A DNA stretch of 64,000 nt from Raja brachyura (taxonomy: Eukaryota): assembly GCA_963514005.1 (NCBI GenBank), contig OY740802.1:15314001-15378000 (forward strand), read 5' to 3'. Below the pieces are notes generated by a model, which saw only the letters and a list, made by a program, of their open reading frames with translations, was not told the origin of the DNA and searched no databases. The position numbers and the translations under genes were made by a program. Positions 819 to 63,905 of this stretch are shown piece by piece; the stretch's first letter is position 1; every line of letters begins with the position of its first letter.

Positions 819-917
819 GTAGACAAAAATGCTGGAGAAACTCAGCGGGTGAGGCAGCATCTATGGAGTGAAGGAAATAGGCAACGTTTCGGGCCGAAAC
901 CCCTTCTTCAGACTGAT
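819..917 (-). mobile_element. Half copy of Penelope-like fold-back element
   Basis: gtagacaaaaatgctggagaaactcagc...gtttcgggccgaaaccccttcttcagactga. The minus strand carries CTGAAGA...GAAACGTT. Possible TSD gattaggt (813-820/942-949). Confidence 0.7.
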
Positions 918-1304
918 GTGGCCTGTTCCGGGTGTTATTGGGATTAGGTGGTATTGTGCATACATTAAACCACATGTTGGATAAACCAGTTTAGTGGGGG
1001 GAAAAATCCTTATCCATGTTCTCGAACGGTTTACTCACATAGTCAGTAACAGCTTGAGGTTAAAGGATGGGCACTGACTGTACTGCTGAGAAATAATATG
1101 AATGATGGGTCATTGTGGCTAATCTGCTCAAAAAAGCAACTCTTGGGATGTTACAGGGTCTCGGGCACAACAGTGGCTCAAAGCCAAGGCTGCAACTGCA
1201 AGTTCAGTCCAGCACCTGAGGTTAAGATCTTGGTAAAATGAAACTGTTGCTGTTACAACAATTCCCAACTGCATACATACTTAAGACAGATGAGGACTCC
1301 CTTA

Positions 1305-2051
1305 AGGGCCTGTCCCACTGCGGCGACATAATTGGCGAGTTTAAAAGAGTTTGCCCTCGACTCATACTTGCAGCTTGGTGGACACGAGGTCCTAGGAAGT
1401 CTTTGTAACTCTCCTTCATGCTTGAGAGTGGTCCCCGCATACTGAAGGCCTCAGCTATGCCGCGGCGTATTTTTCAACATGCTGAAAAATGCCCGCGAGT
1501 AAAAAAAATCTATATTTCTTTTACTCGTAGGTTTAGTCGAGGTAGGTCGTAGTAGGTCGTAATGGTATCGTAGGTAATCGAAGGGAGTCAAAGGTAAAGC
1601 TTGTTGAGATAAAAAAGGTAAGTAAACCGACCGGTAATGTTAAATGCCCGCTAAACTTTATTAAAAGTTGTCTGGCTTCTTAAAAGTGTCTCCACTCCTT
1701 CTTCCCCCCTTCTCCCCCCTTCTCCCCCCTTCTCTCCCCTTCTTTCCTGTTCATTGCGGGTGTGAATTTCAGACAGCGTTCCCCCGCTTTCCCTNNNNNN
1801 NNNNNNNNNNNNNNNNNNNNNNNNNNNNNNNNNNNNNNNNNNNNNNNNNNNNNNNNNNNNNNNNNNNNNNNNNNNNNNNNNNNNNNNNNNNNNNNNNNNN
1901 NNNNNNNNNNNNNNNNNNNNNNNNNNNNNNNNNNNNCGGCTCGTGGTTTCATCGCTGACGGTCGATCCAGCTCGAGGTTATTCAGACGAGTGCCCTCGAG
2001 CTTGAAGGTCGAAGACAGTCACTGAAAAGTCGCGTTAGTGGGACAGGCCCT
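1305..2051. mobile_element. Non-autonomous Harbinger/PIF-type MITE
   Basis: 15-bp TIR AGGGCCTGTCCCACT...AGTGGGACAGGCCCT with TTA on both sides (1302-1304, 2052-2054). CpG-rich interior spanning an assembly gap. Confidence 0.8.
1795..1936. other. Assembly gap (142 N)
   Basis: Run of N inside the MITE. Confidence 1.
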
Positions 2052-2625
2052 TTACATTTGAAGAAATGGGTTGTTTTGAAGGTTCAGCAAATGGCAGTTT
2101 AGCATAAGGTGTGTGAGTTTAGATTACCCCGGGAATCACAGACCTACTGTCTGAAATAATGTAATGGCGTGAGAAAAGTCTTTTATCTGATATTTAAATC
2201 AATACCAGATAGGTGACAGCATCTGGCAGATAGAGGCACTGCTGTCAAACTGAATGGTTTACTCTATCTGATTGCAGCCTATCATGGGCTGAAATAAATA
2301 AATAACAACTTCAGTCTTAACAACTTTTCACATGCCTAGTATCTCAAAGGCAATGGTCCAGAATATCTTTGTGATGAGAGCTTGATCTAAAATCCAAAGA
2401 CACTTCCATGGACCATTTATAAGAAGTAAATCTTACCAATTCATAATTGGACTGATATTGTAATCATGTCCAAAGATATCGATGCAGTTTTTGGATATTC
2501 ACTTACCGCCTCCCTCCATGCTCCAATCATTACCCCTTTCCCCCCTGCCCTCTCGCTCTCCCATCCTCCGCCCCTTGCTCTTTCATCTACTACTCCCTTG
2601 CTACCCAATCCTCCATCTCCTGTCA

Positions 2626-3375
2626 TATAACATGGAAACAGGTCCTTCAGCCCAACTTTCCCATGATGACCAACATGCTACACTAGTTCCACCTGCCTGC
2701 ACCTGGCCCTCTAAATCTCTCCTATCCATGAATCTGTCCCAATACCTCTTATATGTTATGTTAATACCTGCCTCAACTACCTCCTTCGGCAGCTGGTTCC
2801 ATAGACCCACCACCCTTTGTATAAAAATGTTACCCGTCAGCTACTTATTAAATCCATCCCCCATCACCTTAAACCTATGTCCTCTGGTTCTCGATTCCCT
2901 TACACTGGGCAAAATATACTGTGCATTTACCCTATCTATTCCTCTCATGATCTTGTACACCTCAACAAGATTACCCCATGTCCTCTGGCACTCCAAGGAA
3001 TAAATCCTAGCCTACTCAACCTCTCCCTATAGCTCAGGCACTCAAGACCTGGCAATATCCTTGTAAGTCTTCTCTGAATCTTTTCTAGCTTGACACCATT
3101 TTTCCTATAACACGAACACCAAAACTGAACACGATACTCTAAATGTGGCCTCACCAATGTCTAATATAACTGCAACTTGACCTCCTAACTTCGATACTCA
3201 ATATTCTGACTGATGAAGGCCAAAGTGCTGAAAGCCTTTTGGACCACCCTGTCTAGCTGTGAAGCCACTTTCAAGGAACTATGTATCTGCACTCCTAGAT
3301 CCCTCTACTCTACAGCACTCTCCCAGGGCCCTGCTATTCACTGTGTAGGTCCTGCCCTTGTTAGACTTCCCACTC
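2626..3375 (-). mobile_element. CR1/HER1 LINE 3' fragment
   Basis: Minus-strand peptides VRPHLEYRVQFW...LEKIQRRLTRILPGL and VGLWNQLPKEVVEAG are typical of the CR1 ORF2 C-terminus, followed by the CR1 3'UTR. Confidence 0.9.
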
Positions 3376-4067
3376 TGTGCCATTTGCTCCTCCTCTCTCC
3401 AACCGTATGTTCTTCCACCTTCCACCTCCATGCTTCAATCCCTTCCTCCACTCGCTCTGTTCACTGCACCATGTGGCAGGTCGACTGCCTCCACAAAGCC
3501 ATCTCACATCTCTCTGATGGATCTTTTCCCCATTACCTCGAGTGCGTCTTACTCACCATTCTACTCGTCACATCTGTGACTTTGCCAACAATCTCAGCAA
3601 ACCAGAAAATGTTTGCAGCGGTGGAGAAAAAAAGTTTCAAATGGATGATCTTTTATTCAAATTTAAAGGGTATTGACCTTAAGCATTAAATCTGTGTCCC
3701 TCTGTGCAAATGGTTTCTGCCATGCTGTATTTTTTAATATTTTAAATCACCAGCATCTACTGTCTTTTTTGCACATCTTCCATGTTACACGTACAAACAT
3801 TTAAACATCCCTCTGATTATTGATGAGAAAGTTTCCTATTTGTTTGAATATCTAGTTAAAAGTCACAAGCCACTGGAATCCAGTGGAGCACATGTAACAG
3901 AGATAAACTGTCCATTCAGGAGGATACCCCAAAGGCAACACTTCAAGTCATTCAGAAAACATACCACAGCTAAGTGCCTTTTTTTAAAGCTGGTTGTTCA
4001 CACCTTCCTCTCCAAGGGAAAACATTCCCCACTCCTTTAAGTCAGGAAGGCAGATACATTTTCTCCA

Positions 4068-4460: not shown

Positions 4461-4478
4461 AACGTCAGTATATATAAA

Positions 4479-4693
4479 ATGTTTAAGAAAGAACTGCAGA
4501 TGCTGAAAAAAATCGAAGGTAGACAAAAATGCAGGAGGAACTCAGTGGATGAGGTAGCATCTGTGGAGAGAAGGAATTGGCGACGTTTCTGGTCGAGACC
4601 CTTCTTCAGAGGTCTCGACCTGAAACATCGCCTATTCCTTCTCTCCATAGATGCTGCCTCACCCGCTGAGTTCCTCCAGCATTTTTCTCTACT
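4479..4693. mobile_element. Penelope-like fold-back (palindromic) element
   Basis: Head-to-head arms centred near 4605. 13-bp TSD gtcagtatatata at 4464-4476 and 4694-4706. Confidence 0.8.
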
Positions 4694-5046
4694 GTCAGTA
4701 TATATACTTCCTTTAAACTCGAGTGTTAGTGCATGGTAACATTAGGTAATGTGAACAGAATAAAGTAGGATTGGAATGAATGAGTGTTTAATGATGAGTG
4801 TGGACTGGGTGGGTTAACGGTGCTGTTTTTATGCTAATTGGGGCTCTATGACGGAGCAGGAGTGACACAGTGGTGTAGAAAGTAGAGCTGCTGCCTCACA
4901 GCTCCCGCAACTAGAGTTTGATCCTCACCTTCTGTGCTGTCCGTGTGGAGTCTGTCTGGCTATTCATGGTTTCAAGACCATGCCTGATTTTTGTTTTTAA
5001 AGATATATCAGTAATATCACCCAATGGGTAAAACTGTGGATCATGG

Positions 5047-6658: not shown

Positions 6659-7132
6659 AGGCGGCACAGTGGCAGACAGGGTGGCATAGCGGTAGAGTTG
6701 CTGCCTTTCAGTGCTAGCGACCTGGATTCAATCTTGACAATGGGCACTGTGTGTACAGAGTATGTTTAAGAAGGAACTGCAGATGCGGAAAAATCAAAGG
6801 TAGATAAAAATGCTGGAGAAACTCAGCGGGAGAGGCAGCATCTATGGAGCGAGGAAATAGGTGACATTTCAGGTCGAGTCCCTTCTTAAGACTGCATGTA
6901 CGTAATGTATGTAAAGAGTATGTAAGTTCTCCCTGTAACATCGTGTGTTTTCGCCGGGCGCTCCGGTTTCCTCCCACACTGCAAAGACGTACAGGTTTGA
7001 ACGTTAATTGGATTTGAATAAATTGATAATTGTCCCTAGTGTGTAGGATGGTGCAAGTGAACGAGGAGATCTCTGGTCAGCGCGGACTCGGTGGGCCGAA
7101 GGGCCTGTTTCCACGCTGTATCTCTGGTCTAA
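6659..7132 (+). mobile_element. HE1/V-SINE interrupted by a fold-back element half (6764-6893)
   Basis: SINE head and tail are intact. The insert is flanked by duplicated agagtatgt (6757-6765/6915-6923). Confidence 0.85.
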
Positions 7133-12222: not shown

Positions 12223-12394
12223 TATTGTAAAGAATATTCCTCACAGAATCTTCATTGATTCCCTTTATGATTTCACATACTTATTTTTTTTTTCTGTTGC
12301 TTGTTTCTAGCCAGCAAGGAAATCCTTTCTTAATCCAATTATCCCAAAATTTAGCCTAATTGTCCTTTCTATGAAACATTATGCTGTTTATTTG

Positions 12395-12730
12395 GAGACA
12401 GAAGAGATACAGATACTAGAATTTTGAGAAAAACACAAACTGCTCAGTGGTTCAGGCAACATGCCCCCTCAGTGGGGGGGACTGGGCGGATAACATTTTG
12501 GGTTTAGACGGATTTCATCGTCTGAAGGCAAGCTGGAGTAAACCTATTCCTTTTCTCCAGTGATGCTGCCTGACCCACTGAGTTACCCCAGCATTTTATG
12601 TTGGTTTAACCAACATCTGCAGTTCCTCCTTAAACAGTTTGAAGAAGAATCCGACAGGAAACATCGACTATCCATATCTCACCACAGATGCTGCCTGACC
12701 TGCTGAGTTCCTCCAGCAGTTTGTTTTTGA
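12395..12730. mobile_element. Older, nested Penelope-like fold-back elements
   Basis: Two degenerate arms (gatgctgcctgaccc...ctgagtt...ccagca) plus a gaagaa...gac...gaaacatc core remnant. Confidence 0.65.
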
Positions 12731-14379
12731 CTGCTGCTTAATTGCTTGGTTGTTCAGCCGCTACAATACAACACTTCACAGTGTGTTAGTGAAAACTAAC
12801 AGAATAAATCATTTTCTCACACTTTGATTAAGATACGGCTTGATAGAATCCAAGAGTTATCTACCCCACATTGTGGAAAACTTTAAATATTCTATTAACA
12901 ATTACAACAATATTTATAGTATCAAAGCAAATTAAGATATCAGTGTTGGATATCACCATACTATTATTTCTGCTTTTTTTTTTCCAAAAGTCCACTGCTG
13001 GACAACCTGATGACACCACTAAGAGAATAGTGATCTGGAAGAGTTACTGAATTTGACAGCATGTCACGACTGGATTAAGATCAGGAGAGATATATAGCAA
13101 TAAACCTGAGGTGTTTATGCAAGTGTGCCATTTCATTTCTATATATGTTCGTCTCTTTACTTACTGTTGGATTTAGTTAATCTTTGCAGATTGTCTGGAC
13201 AGTTGATGTTAGCAGAACCTATCAGTTCTAACAAAAATATTTAAAATTAAAATGGATTTCTTAAAAAAACTCTTAATAACTCCCTCCAACTGTTTGATCA
13301 TCCTTTCAACCACAGATAAGAATGCCAAAACATGACTGAAGGTGTACCAATATCATTTTGGATACTTTGCAATGCCTAATTTAACTGAAGATTCTTGCAC
13401 TTGACCAAGAAGATGACCACAAATACTATGCAGTTAACAAGTTGAGATGAATGCTCTAAAGTGTGTTTGTAGCTGGTTTCCCCTTTCTCTCTACCACACA
13501 CTTTCTTGTACTGTTGCATTGAACAATGTAGATTGGGTCCTTCATCACATTAAAAAATTGGAGTGATTTGTTAGCTTTGACTCTCAACCCTAAATCTAGT
13601 CACACAATAATTCATATGTGCTTTCAGCTGTGTGTACCAGTTAGCTATCAAAAGTGAAAAACAAGCAAGATCAACAAGAACAAAATAGCACGTGTACTCC
13701 CTGCATTCCCTCCCCACCTAAGACCGCAGGGGCCATTTTGAAACCACAACCCAGCTATTTTTATTTGGAATATTAGATGTCTTTATTTGTTATATACCTG
13801 TAAACATACACTGCTAGAGTCAATTAAGACCAATCCAATGAAATGAATGATAGTGCATGAATTCTTGACTGCCAAAGGACTAGGTAACCATCAATTCCAA
13901 AGTCATGATAACTTTAGACTAACCACTCTCCCAAATCTGCTCCTCCATCCAGAAATACTAATAGATATTTTACCGGCTGCAATATAACAAGGATGTGCCC
14001 CAGTATACATAAAATATACTGTGGCACGGTTTAATGAAGCTTTTGCAATAACCTACAATAAGCAATGCATTCCTTGAGATGTCACTTGACTATCCCTCAT
14101 CAATCCTTATATCAGTGCCTTACCAGTTCTGCGAACCCACATCATCCTCAACTGGAGAGAGCACTTTTCATAACTTGTGGCACAAAATGTCCGAATGTAT
14201 GTACCTTGTCTCCCAAAAGGCAGCAAAACCAATTTGGCCATCAAAATATTCTCAATCAAAAGCAAAGTGATGAAAGGCATTATTCGTAATGATGACACCT
14301 GACACATGAAGAATATATTGTTGGTATCCATTTACTTTTATTAGCAAAGTTCAGCTCTGAACTCCGGGACAACACACTA

Positions 14380-14850
14380 GGCAGGGTTCGTAGAGCCACT
14401 TCCTAACAGCTCCAGAGAACCACGTTAACTCCTGACTTCAAAGGTAGACACAAAATGCTGGAGTAACTCAGCGGGTGAGGCAGCATCTATGGAGAGAATG
14501 AATAGGCAACGCTGAGTTACTCCAGCACTTTGTATCTACCTTCGATTCACCAGCATCTGCAGTTCTTTCTTAAACAACTCCTGACTTCACTTGCTCTCTG
14601 TGGGAAGACCGTATGGGTTTCCCCAGGATTCTCCAGTTTCTTCCCACATTCCAAAGTCATGCAGGGCGTTAGGCTATTTAGCTGCTATGAATAGGTATAT
14701 AAGTCAATGCAAGAATTAGGGACGGTGGGGGTGGAGGGAGTCAACGATATTTTGGGGAGAATTAAAGAATGGGATTAATGCAAGATTATTGTAAATGGAT
14801 AGTTGATAGTCATGTGGACTTAATGATCTGAAGGGTCATTTTTCGTGTAA
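14380..14850 (+). mobile_element. Degenerate V-SINE containing a fold-back element (14441-14575)
   Basis: The insert has an exact 14-bp TSD aactcctgacttca (14427-14440/14576-14589). The SINE body continues cttcccacattccaaag. Confidence 0.75.
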
Positions 14851-16524: not shown

Positions 16525-19332
16525 GTGGGATAGGGGAGACTAAAACTAGGATTCAGTAGCAAGAGAAGATTACAAACATAGGATTGTATTCTCTGCAACT
16601 ATGAATGTTATGGGTTGATTTTGTTTAAACCTTTCGAAATATAGATAAAACAGAGGATAAAAGAGAGAACAAAATATTTCCAATGATTGGAGAAACAAGG
16701 GCTAAGTTCATGATCTAACAATTAGAACCCGTTATTTAGGGAACATAGACATAAAAGACCTCTACATACAAACAGTTGCAAGATTAGGATAATTTATGAT
16801 AATTGAAATGATAATTGATGATAATGAAAATCTAAATTGAAAAACAAAAAATAATGGAAGATCTATTTTAGATTCTTCAATTCTGACTTTTCTTCAATTC
16901 TGTTTCTCTCCCCACAGATATGGCCTGACCTACTGAGTAGTTCCAGATTTTCCATTTTTATTTTATAATTGATGTTAAATCAGCTGTTAATTATACATCC
17001 AAGATTCATAAATCTTTGAAAACTAATGACATTAACATACTCCTCGTAAATTTTCTTACAAAAATAAGGACAAGGTGAGCTTATGGAATTAGCTGATAGA
17101 TCTGCGGTGATATCATTAAATGATAGACTAGATTGAGAGGCACAATAGCCCGCTTGTGCTGTTACATTTCTATTTTCATTTCTACCTCGAAACGACTTTA
17201 CCATCGGGCAATCTTGGCCAAGTACCTATGCTTCTTCCGCTCTACATCAGGGCCATCTTGTTGCAGAACCAGGCCTTAAGATTCATCACCGAAAACACAG
17301 CACAGATGGTGCCTCTTTGTGCCTGTGCCAATTCCAGTTCTTCAGCTGTAGCTGTCTAATCCCATTCCTATGTTCTTTCCCCATATCCCTACAGAGCACA
17401 TACATTACACTGCGCATCATCATGTCAATCATATTATGTGCACAGTTTTGATAAATATCTCACAAGATAATTTACTTAATACATAATGTCCTTTTAAATA
17501 GTGTAATTGACATAGGATTGCTCTAGTATGTGTAGCCATAATGCATATATTCAAAAGGTGTACAAGGTGATGATGCATGGTGACTACAAAAACCATACCA
17601 CTCATTTTAAACATATGTAAGGAACTTCAGCTATTCCCCATATGAAATAGTGTAATAACGTATTTAAATTCTATTGATTGCACTACTTGTATACAAGATT
17701 GGAAAAGTCTGGCTTAGTAATTGCTGGACTTTAATGGGCAGAATCAGGAATGAATTACAATGCAGAATTATGAGCGGAAGGTCTCCTCAAAGTGGGTCAT
17801 GCAACAAAAACAAAATCTAGAGAAATTCCACCGAGTCCTTAAAGGGAGCAATATGACCTGTGTAAGGGCACCCCTTAGGATAGTCAGACTATAAACCATG
17901 CCCTTTTTGATAATAATTTGGTAAAACTATTTTTCCATCCATTATTTGAAAAGCATTGTAAAAGTCAGTGAGCACAAATATTTTGACCCATGAAGCCTGT
18001 TCCTTGCAAAGATTGGTTATAACATAGTTAATACTAGATGAGTTTTCCATTCATTTAACTGAGTAAAGAATAAAACAATCAAGACACTGTGATGTTTTTC
18101 CACTCCCATGCATTTTCACCATTAAACCCTGACTCGAGGACATTTACCCCATTTGTCTACTCCTGTGAAACTTGCTCCCCTATCCGCTTAGGCTATTGAA
18201 ACTCCACAGTATTTAGTTATCCACATATCTTCATTACTCAATCAAACCCAAGCTCTTTTCAACAAACTGCCATGTACAGTCTTATCATACAAGGAGTCAA
18301 GATAAATCCCTTAAAAAAAAAGGTTAAAATAACTTGAAACAAACAAACAATTAATGAGAATGAGTTTGTTCTGAAGATTATATTCATTTGATTTTTTTGA
18401 GAAATATTTAAATTCTGGGAATGTTTTCCTTCCTGGTCTGTGCATGTTTAAGTTCTGCTTGTTAATATTTCAACTCTTTGTTTAAATTGGTTGAAGAAAG
18501 GCCTTTAAAACAGAGTGCACTGAACAATCAAAACCCTGGATTCAGACGAGACTAATTTGATTTTACTCCTGGAGTACTCCAACAAAATGGTAGTCTGGTA
18601 AACAAAAACACGCAATGACATGTACCACATTTATACGCACGACACAAGTCAATTTCAAACTGGAGTCAACTTTATTTTGATGCACATCAAATTAACTTAA
18701 CAGCATTTACAAGCTGCCACTTTTGCCTGCATTCACAAATAGAAATATGCTTGCACTTGACTCAAACAGTTCACATGCATCAGAGAAGACAACTTGAAAG
18801 AAAAGAAACACATATCAGGAATGAACATGTTATCTTTGTGGATTAAATTTGATGCACGATGCACTTATATTGAGGAAAGCTGGATTTAATTTAACCCGAC
18901 ACGATTTCAACGTTATTACATGCTTGCAATGCTATGAGTTACAATTTTCTTAATTAAAAATGCAAAAAATGTCTGCCATGTAATAGGTACATTCTTTTAT
19001 CACTTGCCAGAATCATAGACATCTAGAGTGAATGACTGGTGAAGACAGTATTCACTCTAAAATGCAACCATCAAGAACATTTTATGAAACACAGCAGCAA
19101 TGAGATTTTACTGTCAAGCTTTACACAACTACATCAGAGTTTTTATACTGCGATGGACTCGTCAATGATTTTCGAAAATAAAGAACAAAAGTTAACTTGC
19201 AGTGAGTGTCACATCTGATAAGACTTTTAACAGCAAAACAATGTGTAAATAAATATTTTACAAACACCAGAGCGATCCATGGCTCTTAAACATTGATACT
19301 GAAATGTTTCACGTAGGCATGTTAGAGCCTTG

Positions 19333-20659: not shown

Positions 20660-21130
20660 CAAACAGAACCTTAAAGCAAAATAGCCTTAATGCTAACCAA
20701 AAATGTCCCAAAATGCTTCATAGCCTATGAAGTACTTCTGAAGTGGATAGACAAAAATGCTGGAGAAACTCAGTGGGTGAGGCAGCATCTATGGAGCGAA
20801 GGAATAGGTGACGTTTCAGGTCGAGACCCTTCCTCAGATGCTGCCTCACCCGCTGAGTTCCTCCAGCATTTTTGTCTACCTCTGAAGTGAATATATTATT
20901 GTAATGTAGGGAAAAACGACTTAGTTTGCAGACAATTATATCCCCCAAACAGAAACATGATAATGGCAAGTTAATCTATTTAGCGATATTGGTTTTGGAT
21001 AAACATGGGAGAATTTTTTTTCCTTCAAAATGGTAACATACACCCTCTTGCATCCAACTGAGAGAGAAAAAGAAAACTTTTACTAGATTGTTACTGAAAG
21101 AGGTCAGTTCAGACAGTGCAGCAATGCCCT
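20660..21130 (-). mobile_element. Ancient DeuSINE/SacSINE1-like SINE containing a fold-back element (20746-20880)
   Basis: gtcccaaaatgcttcatagcctatgaagtacttctgaagtg...ttgtaatgtagg...cagacagtgcagca. Insert TSD tctgaagtg (20737-45/20881-89). Confidence 0.6.
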
Positions 21131-23848: not shown

Positions 23849-24431
23849 CTGTGAAAAGAGAAAGAGTGGTTGTGCAGAATCTTGAGAATTTATAGAAATA
23901 TTGAAATACCAATATGCTACCACAAGAAGTGGATTTTAATGAGTGTTCTTATAAGAAGAAAATGAAAAGAGGCAGAAAAGTTTTGGAACAGATTCTAGTA
24001 AACATAATTCAGTAGCTAGTGGGCATTAGCAGACGTAGATTGTGGGAAGGGGTGAAATGGGCAAAATGCCAGAGAAATTGAAACTTCAAAGAGTGTGAAG
24101 TTATAAAACTAGAGGAAATTAGACTGTTAGTATTGGATGGGTCTGTTGAGAAATTCAATACAGGGATTTGGGATTTTTAAACATTGGGCCATGCCAGTGT
24201 AGATCCATGAGTGTGGATGACTGTGCAGTACAAGGAGGGAGCAAATAAAAACAGAAAATGCAGGAAGCACTCACAGGTCCGGCAGCATCTGTGGAAAGAG
24301 AAAAAGAGTTAGCATTTTAAGGTTGAAGACTCCTCTTCGGAGGAAGCAAAATTTAGAATAGGAGTAGAGCGTAGAGGTTTACTGAATGGATTTTGGAAGA
24401 TTTAAGTACAGTATAGAGGTGTCAACGATAT

Positions 24432-24530
24432 CATCAGTCTGAAGAAGGGTCTCGATCCGAAACATCACCCATTCCTCCTCTCCAGAGATGCTGCCTGTCC
24501 CGCTGAGTTCATCCAGCATTTTGTGTCTAT
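24432..24530 (+). mobile_element. Penelope-like element half with hammerhead-like core
   Basis: tcagtctgaagaagggtctcgatccgaaacatcaccc...gatgctgcctgtcccgctgagtt. An older opposite-strand half lies at 24243-24340. Confidence 0.75.
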
Positions 24531-24554
24531 GTTGAACAATATGGCAGCAGTTAG

Positions 24555-26950: not shown

Positions 26951-27346
26951 AAAGGGTGGATTTGGAATTTGTTTATTTGGGGACTCCAGAGATAATATTT
27001 CAAGAATGGGAAGTGAATCCAAGTCTGCCAATGCTCTTTAGAGTGCTAGGCTACTTTAATTCTTTCCATTAGGTGCAAAAGTATACAATTCCCAAGGACA
27101 ACCCATTGCACAAATTCCACAAGCTACTGAAGGTACTGGAACGATGTTCTGAGCACACTTTAAATAGTTAAGATAAATGAATTAGGGGGAAGTGGAATCT
27201 TGTACCGAATATGTTGAGGTTATTGGAGAGCATTAGATGACTAGAGCTTCCCATTAAAAGTAAGAGTCAATATTATTGATGTTGATTGAGATGCTATACA
27301 AAATAAAATCCATACGTACTGAAATTAAACCCCTATTTGTGTTGAT

Positions 27347-27470
27347 AGAGTAACCCAGCGGGACAGGTAATATCTCTGGAGACAAGGAATGGGTGACGTT
27401 TCGGGTCGAGACCGTTCTTCAGACATCTGACGTCTCCCGTTTAAACTAGCATCTGCAGTTCCTCCCTACA
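27347..27470. mobile_element. Penelope-like fold-back element, internally deleted
   Basis: Minus-strand core ctgaagaacggtctcgacccgaaacgtc. TSD ctatttgt (27333-40/27471-78). Confidence 0.7.
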
Positions 27471-29056
27471 CTATTTGTCTGTGTCAGTGTGCAGTTCTTT
27501 GCCTTTGAAATTCTTTCCCCAGTCAATATACCAACGAATGAGAGGTGATTTTCAGGCAATAGATGTTAGTGGGGAAGAGGCTACAGTCTGAATCTCCTGA
27601 AGATGGATGAAAGCTGAAAATTAATGCAACTGTGACAAGAGGTTTGATGCAGACAAATGGAAATAATAAATGCTACTCAGAAAAGTTGCTATAGTGCAAC
27701 TAAGGTCAACAGTTAATTGGTATATTTGGGAAGAGTCTTGGAATCAGCGCAGACTTGTCATTTAACACATCCGTTAGATTACTGTGAACCAGCAACTGAA
27801 CACTGAAAGGAGAACATTGAACATTATTACTTCTGTAAAGACAGAAGATGTCAAGATTAAACTGTGTAATTCACTGGTCAAATTGTGCCAAATCTTGTAC
27901 TCAGCTTAGGTCACAGTCTTAATGAAAATATTCAAGACATAGAAAAACTATGAGAGTAAGAAGGAAATAATGGAAAGCATATAATTATTTTGCTATGGAA
28001 GATGATAAAAAAATAAGACATTTTTTGTACAGAAATATACAGAAATGTGTGTGCCAATGATTTGAAACCCTATTCAGTGTTAGAGTAATACAGTGTGGAA
28101 ACAGGCCATCCGGCCCAACCTTCCCACACCAACCAAGAGGCAAATTGGCAACCCATTAATAGAACACAACAGCTAATCACAATAAATTTACGGACGCTGT
28201 GGATGCGGAGAGGATCCTTACATTCACAGGACAGTTTAAATGGTCCTGAGGGTTGGATGATGGGAGTAAAGATTTTGAAAAACCAGCTGGATTTTCTTTG
28301 CATATATTAACTAGGATAGTCCAAACAACAACCCTCATCTGTATATATCTTGTCATTTTATGAAAAAACAAATGGAAAAAAATAGGACACATGTGAAACA
28401 CATTGCCTGCTACGACGACATGTAAATGAAAATATCGATGCAGGGAAATTGAAATTAATCTACCTCTGGTGCACTAAGTGTCACTGCATGGAACACTAAT
28501 GTCAGGTTAGAATCCTCGCAATAACATCCAAAACTTGGCCAAAAACATAATGGAAGCAGCTTTACAGTAGTTTACACCCAGAATTATGCATTAAACTGGG
28601 ACCTACATGCAGTTGTACACAGCTTACAAGAATTTTCTACATCTCAATCAAAGGGCATCTTTCTTCAAAGAGACATTCACTGTTCTTAAAGGCACAGTCC
28701 ATATTGCAGACAGGCAATAATGACACACAATCAAACTGCCACAGAGAGATAAGCTGTAGGAGAAAGAGGGATCCCTAAATTTGGTGAGAAAATTTGATCT
28801 TATTGGTGTGGTAAATGTCAGGAGGTGCCCCACCCCCCCAACTCCCCTTCCATGTCCCACTTCCTCCGCCAACCCATGCCAGAGGAGGCAGGAGAGTTGC
28901 TCGGGTTCACATAAGAAGAACCAAGCATGATGTACCTACTTTTGTCTTCTCCGTTTTTTGGCATCTCACTGGTGGAGCATAAAACAGACAAACCACTACC
29001 GTACAAAATACATTAAGGTGATCTGTAGACTATCAGAATCAGGTGGGGGAAGCTTT

Positions 29057-30200: not shown

Positions 30201-31518
30201 AGAAACATATATTTGGGCCATGTTTTGTGGGCTACATGGTAAGTATATTGTTCTGAACAAAGTACAAAAATTAGTAAGAAAATGTCATATTCAACCCTTA
30301 CTGCTTTGAAGTAACATAGCCTCAACCCCTCAAACTGGTTTCAAATCTAAATGCATGTTCAAGTGCATTTTGTAATGTATGCGAGGGCCAGAGGGGTGAA
30401 CAGGAAGGACCAATTCATGTAACAGAGCGATGTAAACACATGAGGCATCAATTTAAAATAATTAGTGGATGATTAAAGGGGAGTTGAGGAAAGATGTTGT
30501 TCACCCAAAGCATGAAACAGGTCTGGAACTCGATGCCTAGAAAGGTGATGGAAACAAAACGCATAACACATTTAAAAAGAAGCTGATTGAGTACTTGAAG
30601 TGCCCTTGACTCTGAAAGCTACAGACTGGGATCTGAGCTGCAAGAGTAGACCAAGTAGCTATTTTTTTTACCCAGCATGAATGCAATGAGGTAAATAGTC
30701 TCTGGTGCTATTAGTTTCAATATATATTTCTGTGAAATAACTCACAAATTGGTAGTTTGTAAACTGGACATTCAAAATTGCTTATTCAAGTCAACAGTAT
30801 ATTTTGGGAACACATTTACGGTCACAAATAAAACGAACTCCCAACACCCTAGATTTAAATTTGCAGCTATAGTTCACATCAATGTGGACAAACATCTGAT
30901 GAACTATATATGAAGAGAAGGTGTGGGTTCAAGCAATATTTCTGAGCTGGTAAAAACAAACAGAGGTGATGTGGTTATATGGTTGGCAATTCGCCCCAGA
31001 TCCAAACGCGACATCAGGTTACCAGGAGCAGGTTGGTGTTGGTAGCCACTGCACAGGGATTGGGATAAAAAATAAAGACAAATGACCCAATATTCCGGGG
31101 TGGAAGATTGCAACCTTCACGCCCTGTTTCGACTAATGCAATCAACTCGACGTGCACAAACGGAAGATCAAATAGAACAAGTTGTCCAACAACTTTTGGC
31201 TGTGCACGCCACACGAAGGAAGAAGACTCAATATTCCCAATACTTATGCTATATTAGTGAATTTCAGGACACATAGCCTGACAAGGGGGAGGCAGTGGAA
31301 TGATGCAAATAAATTTTGGAAAGGTGGAGTTGGGCATTATCGAAGTAGGTATGAAACTAAATGATTTTCACTTATGGACAGTACACTAATGAGAAATAGA
31401 AATGAGCCTAAGATAAGTAAATGAACCCCAAACTGCATTCAAATCTTCACCCAATAACTCAAAATGTATAAGAAAACAACTATGGGTGTCCAAGGCAAAT
31501 CAATGGTTAATAATTGAA

Positions 31519-31612
31519 GATGGACACAAAATTCTGGAGTAACTCAGCGGGTCAGGCAGCATCTCCAATGAAAATGGAGAGGCGATGTTTCGGGTTGGGA
31601 CCTTACTACAGA
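31519..31612 (-). mobile_element. Penelope-like element half
   Basis: gacacaaaattctggagtaactcagcgggtcaggcagcatc. 12-bp TSD tgaagatggaca (31515-26/31626-37). Confidence 0.75.
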
Positions 31613-35304: not shown

Positions 35305-35329
35305 TAACTGTAAGTTGACAGTACTGTCA

Positions 35330-35530
35330 ATGTACAAATAACAGAACTCTGGAAGAGCTCAGTGGGTCAAACAGCAACTGTGGAGGTAAAAGATGGAAAT
35401 CAAAGTTTCTGGTCGAGACCCTTCATCATCAACGTACAACTTTTGTCTGCAGGGTGCTGCTTAACCTGCTAAGTTGTTCCGGTTTTGTTTTTTCATTCCA
35501 GGTTCGAGCATCTGCAGTCTCTTTTGTCTT
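35330..35530. mobile_element. Older Penelope-like fold-back element
   Basis: ctggaagagctcagtgggtca...gtcgagacccttcatca...gctgcttaacctgct...gcatctgcagtc. Degenerate TSD cagtactgtcaatg/caggacagtcaatg. Confidence 0.65.
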
Positions 35531-38500
35531 CACAGGACAGTCAATGAAATGTTCTGTTACTTTAATTTACTTATGACTGATGAGAGTAGATTGAGAAGGT
35601 GGTAATCATTTACTTTTTTTGTACATGGGACACCTGGACAATTTTACAATTAATCAGGTTGGTGCCAGAGTTTTTATTTAATTGCAAACAGGTTGATGAA
35701 TGTTAGCTGTTCTAAGCACCAACAGTAAGGAATGTAATATTGTCAGGGCTCATTATCTTTGTCATATCCAATGCATGCAGCCATTTCTTGACTTTAAATG
35801 GAATGAATCATAATGGCTAGATCCTGGCTTCCTGAAGGATCTTCGGGAGGTACCGAGATGGTTCATTTGTTTGGGTGAAGATGATACCAACTTCTTCCGC
35901 ATGGTCTTCTACATTTGCAGGGCGGGCGCTACTAACAATGAGGATAGGCTTGTTCATCGATGCTTCTTCAGCATTTCGCTGTTTAACTACTGGGTTTGAA
36001 AGGACTGCAGAGTTTGACGTGATCAGTCATTTCTCAAATTGCCTGCAGCAAGCCATTTTTGCTACCTTGTTTAGATGCAGTCCTGTGTTGTTCCTTCTCT
36101 AGGTTTTGATGTGCCTGGAGCTATTCTGAGCATGAATTTCTATGTCCTTCGTGAACCATGATTGATTCTCTGACTTGATCGTAATGGCAAAGTTGGAATA
36201 TACACGTCTTTACAGATTGTGGAGGCTGGCCATTCCTCTGCTGCTGATTGTCCACGGGATCCCATATTCACATTTCTGAGAGCTTCTAGAACCGCTGTGA
36301 ATTTATCCCTCTGTAGTCAGTAGTATATTTGTGAGCTGGGCTCCACTAACATTGAGGATAGGTATGTTCACGGATCAATCTCCAGCATTTAGCTGTTCAA
36401 TCGTGATTCAAGATGGACATAGAGATTCATGCACAGTGTAACTCCAGGCTCATCAAAACCCAACATAATGCAGCTTGTCCTCTGTTTGAAGAAGAAAGCT
36501 CATCTCCAAAATTGCCTATGCTGTGGACTGTCAATGATATAGTCAGTGGCAGTTTGATAAAGTTCATAACCATCTCCCTCACGCTTGCAAGCAGCTTTGC
36601 ACTTCAGGACTCAGTCAGGTGTAATGCTGCCAACTTGGTGACAGACTATGAAGTCCCAATACCAAAGTCCATTCTATGGCCTTACTATTCTCCATGCTTC
36701 CTCCATGGAGGAACATTGGGGAGGGAGGAAAGTCGCTGGTAATCCGTCTTCAATTTCTTTGCCTGTCTTTCACATGATGCATTGAGACTTCCTAGGGTTG
36801 AGAATTAATGTTGTTTCATTGGGTCTAGAACTAATAGACCACCACATCAGCTCCCAACACCTCCCCACTGCCCCCACCCCAGCAAAGCCCCTCCACCCAT
36901 TAGCTATATAGATAATTTTTTACTACATATGATAGATCTGCTTTCCAATGGGACTAAGTGTATATATACTTATAATGAAGAAAGAATGTGGGATGTTGGC
37001 TAATTAAGTACAAACTTGTAAGCAATATTCTGTCAAGCCTCCACTTGATTTGTCTGTGGGACAGCTCTCCTAATTTTTGAATTCTGTTGAAGCCATGCAA
37101 GAAGGGTTGACTAATTTTGTCATGCCGTGCCATGTGGTGTTACCAGTCCAGTTCTATCACTACATTTTTGTAGCATTTGCAAACAAAAGGGTAGTTTGCT
37201 AAGATGTCAGACACCAATGAAAAGACAAGCACAATTCTGCGATTCTGGAATCACAAATTGACCAGTAGAGTAAAGACAGAATTCCTTATGAAAAGATATT
37301 AGAGTTCCCCGTGGAGAATGGAGGACAATTTGACAATGTCATGGTCACTGTTACAGATTTTTTTTTTTTTTTAAATAAGGAATTTAATTAATCAATGCTA
37401 TTGTGAGATGGGATTATAATTTATCCAAATATTGAGCTACCATTAGAAAATCCAGTAAACTGCCATAGAATTAACTATGATTTCAAAAGCAAACTCACTA
37501 GATTCACAAAAACACATTGAAAACAGATGTTAAAATCAAGAGACCTTTCTTCTATTTTACCATTCCCCTTTGTTATATTTCACTGGTACAATTAGTGGGA
37601 ATGTTCAAAGCAAGAATTTAAGTCTGTTCTCCCCTTCCGGACACAGGTGTTCATTAATCTATAATTACTTCATGTGGAGCTAACGAACAACTGTAATTAT
37701 TACAGTTAATTCCTGTTTAGTGAATAAACCACTTGTCATCACAAATTGTTGCAGCATGGTCCGCCATGAAAATGTTGGCTGGAAAGTATCAAGATTTAGA
37801 AAGCTTTGATTTAGTAACGCAAGTCCTTACATTTTTACAATGCACACTTCCTCCCCTGAAAAGTTGTAGTAAATGATTCAAATACAATGCAAGTCTATTG
37901 GGCTTTGAAATGCGAAAACTCACCTTACTTTGGACTGTGAAAGTTCTCACACTGGGAATTTAATCTGTGTTTTCAGATGATGTCTGGCGTGAACTTGCAG
38001 CATTTTCTGTTTTATTGCATCTCATTGCCTATATTTGCATTTTTTTCCTTTACACTAGTCATCTCTCCATCCAGAGTTCATGATTGTCTATGGAGCAATG
38101 AAATCACTCTTACGTGACTCCCTCTCACGGAGCTACAATTGCAGAAGTAAAACCTCACTCCAAACTGTCAGTTTTACGCGCTTGAAAGTAAGAAATTCTT
38201 ATTACAGAACTGCCGCTGCAAAACTCTTAACTTAAAAAAACAAATTCACCTGGTGAGACCACAAAACCTAATCGAAGTCAGAAAATAATCTTCGCAGAGC
38301 CAGTATGAATCACACAGAACTACTTATTATCGGGAAGAACGTGCACACAGTGATATATAGTGTCTAGCAGTCACACTTGTATTTTAAGACACAGTAAAGT
38401 CTATGTGTTGATACACTTAAATTGATACAATCACCTAGAATATAGATCATGACAAAAGAAATACTTAAAACAAGGTGATTAACCTTTCCAGTAATCCACC

Positions 38501-51600: not shown

Positions 51601-51756
51601 TACATACCACCTTGCTAGGTGGCAAGGAGGTTGCGGAGGAACATTGCTACAGAAGTTTATAGATGAAATGTTGAACGGATTGTGAGAAGCCTACAGGAAT
51701 TGTCAAGGAGCATCCAGGAATTTGACACTAAGCTGACAGATTTTTTCTATTTTTGC

Positions 51757-51877
51757 AGGAAGGAACTGCAGGTGCTGGTTTAGACCGGATAGACACAAAA
51801 TGCTGGCGTAACTCAGCTGATCAGGCAACATCTCTGGAGAAAAGGAATAGGTGACGTTTCGGGTCAAGACCCTTCAG
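51757..51877 (-). mobile_element. Penelope-like element half
   Basis: aggaaggaactgcaggtgctgg...gacacaaaatgctgg...gtgacgtttcgggtcaagacccttc. Confidence 0.75.
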
Positions 51878-52377
51878 AGTTTTTCAGTTTGTTGTCCATC
51901 TCTATTTGTGACAAATGATCGAAGGAGTCAGTTATTAGTCAACTGGAGTGATATACAAGTGATTGCATGATAATTTTCTTAAAGTTCAGATTTATTTAAT
52001 TGCAACTATTTAAATTCTCCAACATTCGTGGTGGATTTTGAACTTTTGTATCTGAACGAATGGCTCAGAACTGGCAGATTGTCTAGCAATTTAACCACTA
52101 TGTAACAATCTCATGCAGAGATCATAGCTCATCCTTTCCAGTAGTGGCCAACATTGTTTGCATATTTGGGAGCTCAGATGTCATCCAGAACCTGATGGCC
52201 AACATCACAGCTTCTGTTTCAAATGCAAGCAGAAATAACCCAGTGCCTTGATGCTGGAGTACAAGTTAGGACTCCTGCAAAGAAAACCCAGATTTCCAAC
52301 TTCACAGATTAAAATGCTCGAATGAACCAGTGCGGTTTCACACAACCCACCAACCCTCTTCCATCAGATTATCTGGA

Positions 52378-52472
52378 CTGAAGAAGGGACTCGACCCAAA
52401 ACGTCACCCATTCCTACTCTCCAGAGATGCTGCCTGTCCCGCTGAGATATTCCAGCATTTTGTGTCTACCTT
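52378..52472 (+). mobile_element. Penelope-like element half
   Basis: ctgaagaagggactcgacccaaaacgtc. 15-bp TSD agattatctggactg/agattaactggactg (52366-80/52473-87). Confidence 0.75.
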
Positions 52473-52559
52473 AGATTAACTGGACTGTTGACTTACACTG
52501 ACACTCTAACTTCTGTGGTGGTGGCTAGCGGTGACATTGAATACATCAAAGATGCTGAT

Positions 52560-53191: not shown

Positions 53192-53450
53192 TAACATTCA
53201 ACTAATATGCTTGCCGTTAACTGTCAACCAATTAAGCTAGGTTGTTGCTACCCAAGACGGATGCTCCACCTCACAGCCAGAATAGCTTGAGGGCATCTTT
53301 CAACCAAACTACTGTATGTTCTGTTGAAAGCCATTGTCCTTCTACCAGCCATGTTGGTGTTTTGGGTTTGCAGTGGGTAGGACCGCTAGGGTAGGAAAGA
53401 CTCATGGAGAATGGTACCAAGGAAAATCACATTATGCCTTTTATATTAAA

Positions 53451-53672
53451 GGTAGACAAAAATGCTGGAGAAACTCAGTGGGTGCGGCAGCATTTATGGA
53501 GCGAAGGAATAGGTGACGTTTCGGGTCGAGACCCTTTTTCAGTCTGAAGAAGGGTCTCGACCAGAAACGTCACCTATTCCTTCGCTCCATAGGAGCTGCC
53601 TCACCCGCTTAGTTTCCCAAGCATTTTTGTCTACCTTCGATTTTTCCTGCATCTGCAGTTCCTTCTTAAACT
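53451..53672. mobile_element. Complete Penelope-like fold-back element
   Basis: Arms about 90 bp centred on ttcagtctgaa. TSD ttttatattaaa (53439-50/53673-84). Core CTGAAGA...GAAACGTC at 53544-53571. Confidence 0.85.
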
Positions 53673-54687
53673 TTTTATATTAAATGTAGCATGATTTCAA
53701 TTTTACCTTTAGCTTTGAATGTTTATTTGAGGTCAAGCAGATGCTATGCACATTAATGAAAAGATAAGTTACGGATTTGGTAATGAATGGGAATTGAAGT
53801 GCTAGCAGGAATCGCACTTGGATGAAATTCTTTGCAAATAACCTGGGAACAGAATGGCTATCTGTATTGCCTGGATTGTTCTTCAGCTGCTTGTCTTACA
53901 GCAAGTGGGAAGGTCTGTGTCCTCAAGATGACAAGGTTGTCCAGTATGTAGCAGGCCACCAGAAAACTTGACAGCTGCTCTGCTGCTCTCTCCAGTCAGA
54001 AGACATCAAGTGTAGAAAATCAATGCTGTCCATTGCCAGGCACAGACATAATGCCCGGCTGTGGTCAAAAGTCAATGGAGAAGATACAATTTCAGAAACA
54101 GGGTTAAGACCAAGAGACTGTAAATGGCACCGAACCTTATAACCAATGAAACAGCAGCCATTCCCCATCTGCTCGTTGCCCCAATGAAACAAACTGTTCT
54201 TTGCATCAAAAGGAAGGTCATAAAGCAACAATATGTCAATACAAATACGGAGCAACTTAGCATATCAGATTGACCGATGCCATTCTTGCAGTGAGGGACG
54301 ATACTGTGCTGAGCTCCATCCAAGGAGAAGATGGAGTGTGCCTGGCTGCCTGTGTGGGCTGATGTTGAAGGGGCCGGGGATGTGGCACATCTGCTAAGCA
54401 CAGAGGAACAGGGCTCAGGCCTACACCTTGGACAGGTTATTGCTAGAAATTGTCATTGCATGCTCCATGCATTGATAGATCAGCCATGTCCTTTGGTCTC
54501 TCTCATCATCTTCTCCTTGGATGTGATGGAAGCTATTGTCTCTCCTTCATTTGACATAGCAACCCCCCACAGCACAAACATAATGGTCAATGATTTATGT
54601 TGATTTTTTTACCATTGGGAAATCTCCAGGTTGGGAAGAACAATGCAGATTTTCTGATGACGGTTTCAAAAACTGCTTGGTAACATA

Positions 54688-57725: not shown

Positions 57726-58244
57726 GTAGAAAGGGAAACAAACTTTCCTTTCAGATTGAAAACCTTTCATCAGAATCGACCAGAGCCATTAACTCCGTTT
57801 TACTTTCCACAGATGTTGTCTAGCCTTCTGAGTTTTTATTTTTTTTATTTCTGCTTTCTCATGTTGTTAAGGAAACTAGGATGTCCAAGAAGCGATGGAA
57901 AACCACATCCTATTTCAGTTTAGTGTTGTTCATTTTAAGAAAGCGGGTGGGTTTTGATTTTGAAAGATAGTGCCTTTGTTAGCATTACGTTCTTTCAACG
58001 CATTTGCCACCTCAAAACCTATCATACTGGAGTGGAAGCAAGGGACATCCTTGGAAGAACTTTATTTTACCAATTATTTTCCTTATCTTGGATCAGTTAT
58101 CCTGATGCCACCCATGTATAAGTACGGCAGAATTAAAGGAGTTACTTCATTTTAAGTCAAAATCTTCACTCCTCATACCATGCTTCTTGGAAGCTGGTAG
58201 TCCTATATTCTCGTGTTGTTTTCAGGCATATTTAGGCCACTGAT

Positions 58245-61554: not shown

Positions 61555-62250
61555 AGTGTATTGTGAATTTATGGAATTCCCTGCCACAGAGGGCAGTGGA
61601 GGCCAAGTCACTGGATGGATTTAAGTTAGATAGAGCTTTAGGTGCTAGTGGAGTCAAGGAATATGGGGAGAAGGCAGGCACGGGTTATTGATAGGGGACG
61701 ATCAGCCATGATCACAATGAATGGCGGTGCTGGCTCGAAGGGCCGAATGGCCTCCTCCTGCACCTATTTTCTATGCTTCTATGTTTTTGAAATGATTTTA
61801 TTGATGTAATTTGGTTAGGCAGGATTTGGAGTATTATGTGCAGTTCTGGTCGCCCCCTTATAGGAAGCTTGTGAAGGCGTTGGTGAGGGTTGAGAAGAGG
61901 TTCACCAGGATGCTTCCTGGATTACAGAGTATTAGTTATAAGGAGAGGATGGACAAACATGGATTGTTGTCTCCGGACCATCGGAGGTTGAAATATATAA
62001 CTTTATGAGAGGCACGGATAAAGGCTTATAGAGGATAGACTAGTTATTTTAACACCGAGAACGTGGTGGGTGCGTGATAGTGCTTCCAGAAAGGGTGATG
62101 CAAACAGATACAATAACAACATTGAAGAGACATTTAGACAGATAGAGGAATAGGGAGTGAATTGAGAAATATAGAGGGATGTGCAGTTTAAATAGGCATT
62201 AGCACAAACATTGCATGTCGAAGGGCCTGTTCTGTTATATGTTCTATGTT
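61555..62250 (+). mobile_element. Two CR1 fragments (61555-61785 young 3' end, 61810-62250 older)
   Basis: VRQDLEYYVQFWSPPYRK...RVEKRFTRMLPGL and a 3'UTR as at 33400. Confidence 0.9.
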
Positions 62251-62269
62251 CCAATTTAGGCAATGGAGC

Positions 62270-62590
62270 AACTATTTTCTATGTAGCATACTACTGGAGA
62301 CAGCAAAGTGACAATGATCAAACAATATCTTTCTGCAACACTGATTGAGGGATAACTATTGATCTGGGTACCAGGGTTAACTTCTCTGCTCCTTTACTAT
62401 AGGAGCTACAATAATCATTTGAACCAGCAGATGATTGGTACAATATCTTCCCTGTATAATAACCCCCCCAACAATGCAGCACTCCTATAATGCTCGATTT
62501 TAACATTGAAAAGAGTGGGGATGAGCCTCAGAATCTTCTGACACAAGGGGTAAGAGAGCTACCACTTTTGAGTGTGCACAAAGCACGACT
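62270..62590 (-). mobile_element. DeuSINE/SacSINE1-like remnant
   Basis: tgattgagggataactattg...caatgcagcactcc...cttctgacacaaggggtaagagagctaccact (reverse-complement tRNA-like head). Confidence 0.6.
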
Positions 62591-63469
62591 GACAGTAAAT
62601 TTCAATCATTAAGTTTGATAAATAGATGAATGCTCCGCCTTTCATATGTGCTGTGTAGCCGTTGCTCCCCTGTGAAATATCTTATCCAAAATGTTCATGA
62701 AAACATTGGTGCAAACAAAATAAAATCTGTTTCTGTGCACACTCTATAATGCTCTGGTGAGCCATCTTATTGCCAATGTTTAGCAAAGGAATTTGTGTTT
62801 GAAGATTATAATTGGCCTGTAATTATTAGTTTAATTGTCTCCTAATGATTCTGGTGGTAACCATTATTGTAAGTCATTAACTTGACAGAAAATGCAAACT
62901 GGCAGTAATTCGCTCACTTGTGGTTATAGTGGAATAAATACTATTTTGCCATTGGGATTCCATTTATTAAATAATACTACCAATGGAGATAATGGAGTTT
63001 CCACTCTCCAATCCAAGTGGAGTAATCTTCAATTGTATTCTGAACAAGGGGCATGTCTTGTAATATATAGGTAGGTTCTATATTTTTTTAGTCCTTGGAT
63101 AGTTAACATTGAATATTTAAATAATTAATTGGCTTCAATCTTATAATTATTTAAAATTTGGCTTTTTTTAAACATTTACTTGTTAATTATGTGCACCATT
63201 AGGATACATTAGAACAATTTATGTGGTATCATTATGACTTTTTGTCTTTTAATGATCAAAAGTGCAATCATAAATATGGTAAATCATTTTGTATTCTGGT
63301 CAATCAATATTCCTTCTTCTTATTTCTGATAATAATTGTAAAATTGTGACAAATGATGAATTCCACAAGTTTTGTGCATTGACATTTTAGGATTATTTTA
63401 CATAAGGTAGGAAATATGGTATAATGATCACTGATGTTAATTCATGTGTAACAGGCAGGGGTTATCTTT

Positions 63470-63905
63470 GAAAGGCAAAAATATCTGTGGATATTGGAAC
63501 TCAGATAAACACTGAAAGTTATGGAAACACTCAGCAGCTCAGTCGGCATTTGTGGATCAAACAGAGTTAACATTTCAAGGGTGGAAACAAGAAACTACAG
63601 ATGCTGGTTAATACACAAAAGGACACAGGTCAAGCAGCATCTCTGGAGTGCATGGATAGTGACATTTTGGGTGGAGAGACTTCTTCAGACTCATAGGTGA
63701 CGTTTTGGGTTGAGACCCTTCTTCAGGGCTCGACCCGAAACATCACCTATCCATGTTCTCCAAAGATGCTGCTTGACCTGATGAGTTACTCCAGCACTTT
63801 GTGTCCTCTTAACATTTCAGAGGAATGTAGGGAATCAGTATTCTGATCACTCGTGAAACAGATGAAGGGTTGTTGTCTGAAACATTAGCTCTATTACTCT
63901 CTCTG
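63470..63905. mobile_element. Young fold-back element (63578-63808) nested in an older one
   Basis: 11-bp TSD ttaacatttca (63567-77/63809-19). The old element's arms flank the insertion. Confidence 0.75.

Follow-up and report, generated by a model that had tools for sequence, protein, structure and literature searches.

A short palindromic repeat of Raja brachyura, very probably the retro-inserted terminus of a Penelope-like element

A stretch of 64,000 nucleotides from Raja brachyura (GenBank assembly GCA_963514005.1, contig OY740802.1, positions 15,314,001 to 15,378,000), referred to here as the window, carries many copies of a short module that is found either as solo arms or as head-to-head palindromes. 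The module is very probably the terminus of a Penelope-like element (PLE), placed in the genome by retro-insertion. A profile search of the window detected 30 module arms at E<0.01, among them all 20 arms on which the profile had been trained; four extra matches, at E>4, were left out of the count, and the reversed window gave no match below E=3.1. The arms group into 21 loci, 14 of them younger insertions and seven older, with ten loci made of two opposed arms and eleven of a single arm. These loci occupy 2,877 bp (4.5% of the window), and self-comparison of the window shows the module to be its most repeated sequence. A preliminary description of this DNA spoke of about 20 copies of a module of about 100 bp; the repeats are real, but the full unit is about 138 nt long.

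Arm ends were read by eye and are numbered here from the first C of the ribozyme core (+1) described below. For 22 young 3' ends, eight are at +130/131 (site B) and 11 at +92 to +98 (site A), so that 19 lie at one or other of two sites about 37 nt apart; the remaining three are at +34, +75 and +80. Clustering at site A (11 of the 14 ends that are not at site B) was reached in none of 1,000,000 uniform simulations, and the older family ends at the same two sites. On the 5' side, 12 of 14 young insertions reach -7 to +1, the start of the ribozyme core, and the other two begin at +29 (the predicted cut site) and at +25. Sequence shared further upstream of this zone was found in none of the young insertions. 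The arms had been described as variably truncated; they end instead at two fixed 3' sites and in one 5' zone. Two database open reading frames (ORFs) from outside the window, P0003 and P0004, read through solo module copies with the same two termini, and the end pattern is therefore not confined to this window. Ribozyme cleavage was rejected as the source of the 5' end, since only one of 14 insertions starts at the cut site. A splice junction was rejected as well: a candidate acceptor lies just before -1, but the copies that start there share no upstream exon. The candidates for the near-fixed 5' end are a transcript start, a short non-autonomous donor and a hard stop of reverse transcriptase (RT).

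The most complete palindrome, 53439..53684, joins a minus arm without tail (53449-53543) to a plus arm with tail that extends to 53672; it is flanked by a 12-nt target-site duplication (TSD), and its centre has 4 nt of microhomology just upstream of the core. At 4464..4706, a minus arm with tail (4477-4610; site B, 5' end at -1) meets a plus arm without tail (4611-4693; site A, starting at +10) in a blunt centre, all within a 13-nt TSD. The minus arm of 14427..14589 lacks the tail (+25..+98) and the plus arm has it (+63..+131), with 2-nt microhomology at the centre and a 14-nt TSD. Both arms of 20737..20889 end at site A (-1..+93 and +47..+94; 3-nt microhomology, 9-nt TSD). The palindrome 27333..27478, with an 8-nt TSD, has a minus arm that spans -2 to +75, or reaches site A if a 14-nt internal deletion is assumed; next come about 11 nt of filler or deleted remnant and a plus arm that is tail only. 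Among the older palindromes, 35323..35546 has a minus arm without tail, filler, and a plus arm (from about +40 on) with tail, within a 10-nt TSD with one mismatch. Two others have been split by younger insertions. One is 12382..12740, with a tailed minus arm at about 12391-12525, a tail-less plus arm to 12731 and a 9-nt TSD with one mismatch; the plus-strand insertion in it, 12520..12644, has an 8-nt TSD with one mismatch and contains a 13-nt antisense piece (12529-12541) and an arm (12542-12636; +29..+131) that is the only one to start at the predicted cut site. The other, 63484..63915, is a remnant (63484-63577, minus; about 63855-63915, plus, E=4.4) that is interrupted by the younger palindrome 63567..63819, which has a tailed minus arm, a tail-less plus arm, a partial tandem copy of the ribozyme segment at 63693-63726 and an 11-nt TSD. 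Several waves of insertion with young copies nested in old ones had been proposed, and they are indeed observed, by eye, at 12.5 and 63.57 kb, with two families distinguished by age. Both nested copies sit in the ribozyme region of the older copy. Older copies fill 1.5% of the window, and the landing of two of 14 young insertions in them has p=0.018 in a post hoc test.

Young solo arms that end near site A include 817..918 (minus strand; -7..+94; intact hammerhead motif with its core at 911; flanking repeat 813/942 of 7 nt, within chance), 24432..24531 (plus; -7..+91; hammerhead core at 24439; TSD uncertain), 32915..33012 (plus; -1..+94; intact hammerhead core at 32921; 7-nt TSD) and 52366..52487 (plus; +1..+96; 15-nt TSD with one mismatch). 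The tail is present in 6757..6923 (minus; arm 6763-6894, -4..+131; 20-nt low-complexity filler at 6895-6914; 9-nt TSD) and in 51737..51885 (minus; -1..+130; 11-nt TSD with one mismatch). A diverged arm, 31515..31637 (minus), runs from -1 to site A and has a 13-nt filler and a 12-nt TSD that largely overlaps the module end. Older solo arms with a site-A type end are 24234..24350 (minus; 12-nt TSD with one mismatch) and 49268..49358 (minus; a TSD was looked for and none found). Older fragments occur at 16890..16960 (plus; site-A type end, again with no TSD found on inspection) and 57775..57850 (plus; weak, E about 1e-3). None of the 21 loci is a head-to-tail tandem array of units with a complete type-I hammerhead. 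Fillers of 13-23 nt are seen at the 5' junctions 6895-6914, 31613-31625 and 919-941; those at 6895-6914 and 31613-31625 resemble repeats of short target-like units. The RT of PLEs is akin to telomerase, which lends interest to reiterated fillers.

All ten TSDs listed in the preliminary description are present at their positions and lengths, including the single mismatch at 52366/52473. Their lengths are 7-15 nt and their sequences differ between loci. Exact flanking repeats of at least 9 nt occur at seven of 21 loci, compared to one of 420 mismatched flank pairs used as a test of chance; the repeat in the lone control pair is a long one, whose probable source is the pair of overlapping loci at 63.5 kb. 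With one mismatch allowed, repeats of at least 10 nt flank 12 of 21 loci and 21 of 420 mismatched pairs. Repeats of 7 nt are within chance (49 of 420 mismatched pairs), and the case for the TSD 32915/33006 therefore lies in its placement at both ends. Other likely TSDs, each with one mismatch, are 24234/24339 (12 nt), 51737/51875 (11), 35323/35537 (10), and the shorter 12382/12732 (9) and 12520/12637 (8). Some TSD bases are shared with the module end (about 10 of the 12 at 31515; 2-4 at 32915, 52366 and 51737), so the real nick staggers may be shorter than the TSD lengths. The TSDs lean towards AT (67% compared to 60%, p=0.04).

The strand of the module opposite to that read in the preliminary description opens with a minimal type-I hammerhead ribozyme motif. 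It comprises the CUGANGA core and one additional base, a helix II of 4 bp with a G-C closing pair, GAAA, a self-complementary pair where helix III would be, a GUC or GUU triplet, and a helix I of 2 bp. A descriptor (CUGANGA, extra base, helix II, GAAA, self-complementary pair, NUH, no helix III) was written from PMC4209133. The window consensus matches the descriptor perfectly, and none of 20,000 dinucleotide shuffles does. Six sites in the window match it with at most one mismatch, all six inside the module, and each of eight shuffled windows has none. The layout equals that of the minimal PLE hammerheads aligned in the supplement of PMC4209133, which includes cases with a 2-bp helix I. The ribozyme is a predicted one. 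Modelled folds of the copy 6763-6894 (minus) and of the consensus show base pairing between tail and ribozyme core, which is not kept in all subfamilies. Such pairing, if the modelled folds are right, would hold the ribozyme inactive until the tail is bound or copied.

Taken with two 3' ends a tail-length apart, the hammerhead motif strengthens the proposed origin from a PLE terminus, and neither had been seen when that origin was suggested. By analogy, the interval of about 37 nt between sites A and B is the optional PLE tail. A tail of 30-40 bp is given for PLEs in PMC8557442. In a rotifer PLE, one of two inverted pseudo-long terminal repeats (pLTRs) has a 31-bp tail, the inverted pLTR is 37 bp shorter, and TSDs are 8-10 bp (PMC3846280); a 34-bp repeat is described for Drosophila Penelope. 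Several marks of pLTRs are present together here: the hammerhead motif, a one-sided tail, head-to-head and partial-tandem layouts, and variable TSDs. It is likely that the module is the hammerhead-to-tail segment of the pLTR of an endonuclease-bearing PLE, dispersed without the gene, and this judgement extends to the full explanation with the mechanism given below. The narrower statement, that of PLE-terminus identity and retro-insertion, is held with greater confidence.

Like the pLTRs of Penelope/Poseidon and Neptune (PMC3846280, PMC8557442), the module is found as head-to-head and partial tandem copies, with a one-sided tail of 30-40 nt, TSDs of unequal length and insertion into older copies; unlike them, it repeats without a gene between the copies, as a unit of about 138 nt with a near-fixed 5' end. 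It shares with the minimal type-I hammerheads of metazoan PLEs (PMC4209133) the core, the extra base, the G-C closing pair and the palindromic pair that replaces helix III. Its helix I, with 2 bp, is short by comparison, and no cartilaginous fish is in the alignment examined there. Hammerheads in that paper are mostly single motifs, with pairs on opposite strands 100-700 bp apart. The Poseidon element of Anolis carolinensis (PMC11167929) resembles the module in having two RT start sites that bound the tail, extension of both strands, AT-leaning targets and a ribozyme whose cleavage is unused. Its ORF starts at helix II, with the start sites inside the ORF, whereas the young module lacks a conserved, ATG-led frame with a match among known proteins (two frames searched). 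Head-to-head products are not modelled in the portions of that study covered. Non-LTR retrozymes (10.64898/2026.07.22.740005) are, like the module, non-coding, hammerhead-bearing, pLTR-related and PLE-dependent, and monomers are counted among them; they are defined by head-to-tail tandem arrays and are reported to be depleted in introns, in contrast to the module, which is solo or head-to-head and dense in an intron.

A linked PLE gene was sought in several ways. The Pfam domain scan covered 150 of the 153 window ORFs of at least 70 aa (stop-to-stop) and gave a single weak RT match (RVT_1, E=0.0034) at 24713-24958. Its place upstream of the older 24.3-kb arm, with which it shares the strand, suggested a PLE link, which was rejected because the match reads as part of a decayed long interspersed element (LINE). 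That element, at 24640-25780 (minus), has endonuclease-like and RT motifs that look to be of CR1 type; PDB, homologue and Pfam checks of the LINE reading of 24713-24958 found nothing. Protein searches with module translations yielded none of four candidates in the first round, two matches (P0002 and P0003) in the second, and one of seven (P0004) in the third. P0002 was discarded as a low-complexity chance match, and none of the three contains a Pfam domain. Two scans of prokaryote genomes for module copies from host contamination returned none. A literature search produced no account of the module family, nor one in which PLE palindromes come from two-strand priming; Repbase, Dfam and subscription papers were outside its scope, and the family may well be catalogued. 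In the supplement of PMC8557442, neither three short motifs nor three taxon words gave a match.

A number of results weigh against the PLE reading or against parts of it. The scan of 150 of 153 ORFs gave no GIY-YIG domain, none of the copies in the window is contiguous with a PLE RT/GIY-YIG gene (animal genomes were outside that search), and module translations in two of six frames had no RT-bearing match. Rfam returned no match in the window at gathering score, and at a loose E-value only generic hairpin families and no hammerhead. Helix I is only 2 bp. Among 15 arms, two-sided covariation was seen in none of six pairs, the changes being one-sided (U-A to U-G), and the 81% of helix cells that are paired do not exceed shuffles; lack of covariation is expected for decaying copies of few sources and is no proof of activity. 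Arm ends were curated by eye. One palindrome, at 20.7 kb, has two site-A ends. Several 3' junctions have a target-to-module match of 1-3 nt (one of about 10 nt), whereas non-homologous priming is reported from in vitro PLE work (PMC11167929). As detailed below, four of seven informative palindromes fit a fold-back origin equally well, and later deletion of the centre could give the other three.

The host sequence around these copies includes a first coding exon of 13 codons followed by a GT donor (41465..41503, minus strand; ATG at 41503). It presumably belongs to a tshz-type gene, judging from the peptide, with tshz2 as a tentative paralogue name. The exon stands beside a CpG-rich region: the segment 41380-42200 (minus) holds exon 1 and a long 5' region that is CpG-rich and has trinucleotide and dinucleotide repeats. 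No second exon was seen in the 41 kb downstream of 41503. Fourteen of 21 module loci are in the tshz-type intron, and seven (49.3-63.9 kb) are upstream of the first coding exon. The palindromes at 53.4 and 63.6 kb are among these seven and so lie outside the inferred pre-mRNA.

Other repeats are plentiful. A family with terminal inverted repeats, shared symmetric termini and short T/A targets is represented at 16292-16524, 19780-20170, 34230-34504, 34752-35312 and 52569-53195; its members are likely non-autonomous DNA transposons, and 34230-34504 is nested in a repeat resembling short interspersed elements (SINEs). A family of SINE-like repeats occurs at 117-306, 5045-5351, 6916-7133, 8408-8660, 8942-9203, 47419-47660 and 54688-54831, and the module copy 6757-6923 is inserted inside one copy. 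LINE 3'-end fragments, apparently CR1-like, are found at 2631-3372, 26271-26945, 46359-46624, 47931-48680, 57303-57720, 59236-59554 and 32982-33389. A separate near-perfect palindrome of 109 nt, with 52-nt arms that are 96% complementary, lies at 22767-22875 and has no other copy in the window. An assembly gap of 142 N is present at 1795-1936.

The architecture of the palindromes bears on how they formed. One site-A and one site-B end were found in seven of eight classifiable palindromes (p=0.035 against 0.5), with two other two-armed loci left unclassed. Microhomology at six centre junctions is 0, 1, 2, 2, 3 and 4 nt (total 12 nt, p=0.005-0.02); two centres with filler were excluded. In all five left/right pairs compared, both arms come from one subfamily and resemble one another more than they do the average of the remaining copies; private variants are common to both arms of the 63.6-kb palindrome. 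This points to one source per insertion. The two arms of a palindrome have diverged by 5-11% at non-CpG sites, as have unrelated copies of comparable age. Arms of the same subfamily with this divergence fit two-strand priming, fold-back and neutral decay alike. The tail-less arm is within the span of the tailed arm at 4.5, 12.5, 53.4 and 63.6 kb, and has sequence missing from the tailed arm at 14.4, 27.3 (ambiguous) and 35.3 kb.

A mechanism may be proposed from PLE biology. The GIY-YIG endonuclease of a PLE would make two nicks, 7-15 nt apart, one in each strand of a mildly AT-rich target. Each freed 3'-OH would then prime RT inside the pLTR RNA at site A (about +94) or site B (+130/131); the ends at these sites are observed, and priming would be their cause. 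Synthesis would halt at the start of the ribozyme core, where the arms are seen to stop (-7 to +1), and the template would be uncleaved RNA. If one strand were extended, a solo arm joined by microhomology or filler would result. If both were, usually one per site, the cDNA 3' ends would meet with 0-4 nt of microhomology, the value seen at the junctions, to give a head-to-head palindrome in which a single arm bears the tail. The copies would then undergo neutral decay. In vitro, a purified PLE protein of the anole both cuts and extends the two target strands, initiates within the RNA at two sites that bound the tail, and uses uncleaved RNA, with no need for ribozyme cleavage (PMC11167929). These properties would account for the variable TSDs, the two 3' ends and the intact ribozymes observed here. 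Priming on both nicked strands is favoured over fold-back as the origin of the palindromes, at about even chances of being correct.

The preliminary description called these palindromes fold-back structures, and in that model, the less probable though a serious one, a single PLE cDNA reaches the ribozyme region and turns back on itself, with the endonuclease resolving the product at site A. Self-priming has been proposed for PLE inverted repeats (PMC3846280) and nuclease resolution of the tail in PMC8557442. Containment of the tail-less arm in the tailed arm at the four palindromes named above is what the model predicts; the centre at 53.4 kb is a short palindrome just upstream of the core, subfamily variants are common to both arms, and the two equal ends at 20.7 kb are the expectation for full copying-back. 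For three of the seven informative palindromes (14.4, 27.3 and 35.3 kb, the second ambiguous), however, the extra sequence in the tail-less arm would need later deletions. The use of site A by solo arms as well identifies it as a start site, and both strands are extended in vitro (PMC11167929). Fold-back is not preferred for these reasons. A different question is the donor, which could conceivably be a non-autonomous mini-element in its own right, about 140 nt long, that depends on a PLE as a SINE does on its partner and is akin to a monomeric retrozyme; this is a tentative idea, more likely wrong than right. Ordinary 5' truncation should scatter, yet 12 of 14 young insertions reach the same 5' zone and none share upstream sequence. 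The two out-of-window copies have the same termini, and vertebrate retrozyme monomers related to pLTRs have been reported (10.64898/2026.07.22.740005). Against this, identical ends would arise if a full PLE RNA had its transcript start at this point or imposed a hard stop on RT there, one 64-kb window cannot show rarer long copies, and tandem arrays, the defining trait of active retrozymes, are absent here. The combined proposal is improbable: a self-standing mini-retroelement of about 140 nt, coding for no protein, would parasitise an enzyme of Penelope-like type and insert by symmetric two-strand priming, in which each nicked strand starts at its own site on uncleaved ribozyme RNA and the cDNAs fuse head-to-head.

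Explanations that dispense with PLEs fare worse than these. Miniature inverted-repeat transposable elements (MITEs) are short, palindromic, numerous and non-coding, as is the module, and its high density would suit a DNA transposon MITE with internal deletions. The variable length and sequence of the TSDs, the asymmetric ends, the ribozyme motif, and the 11 of 21 loci that are single arms, several with their own TSD, are unlike MITEs and agree with the preliminary claim of retro-insertion; in addition, the genuine terminal-inverted-repeat elements of the window have symmetric ends and short T/A targets. A MITE origin is extremely improbable. Variable TSDs are typical of LINE insertion, and with CR1-like and SINE-like repeats abundant in the window one might consider a tRNA-derived SINE or a LINE 3' fragment that CR1/L2 had mobilised, the inversions being due to L1-style twin priming. 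A tRNA scan of the window was empty, the module has neither a simple-repeat nor a poly-A tail, and self-BLAST found no similarity between it and the LINE/SINE repeats of the window. The two discrete 3' ends, the arm overlap of up to about 95 nt and the PLE-type ribozyme also make this origin very unlikely. It is similarly unlikely that the palindromes have been kept because they serve as RNA hairpins in tshz-type pre-mRNA. The predicted folding on the pre-mRNA strand is strong (z=-17.6 and -13.5), as for any inverted repeat. Equal structures lie upstream of exon 1, both orientations are present in the intron, and the arms have diverged as much as unrelated copies of similar age. The earlier suggestion of hairpins seeded through tshz2 pre-mRNA is overstated: three long young hairpins are intronic, but two of the largest are outside, and there is no sign of function. 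Nothing indicates selection on the intronic hairpins.

The architecture is already known for PLEs, and the class of element would not surprise a specialist. The origin of the inverted repeats and tails of PLEs is called undefined in PMC8557442. Numerous short copies bounded by TSDs allow nick stagger, the choice of start site on each strand and junction geometry to be counted across a genome and compared to the in vitro data of PMC11167929. Palindromes of this kind are easily mislabelled as MITEs. If the mini-element exists, its density of about one locus per 3 kb, in at least two families, would supply thousands of products with which to test two-strand priming against fold-back, and many MITE-like palindromes in PLE-rich genomes would be retro-products.

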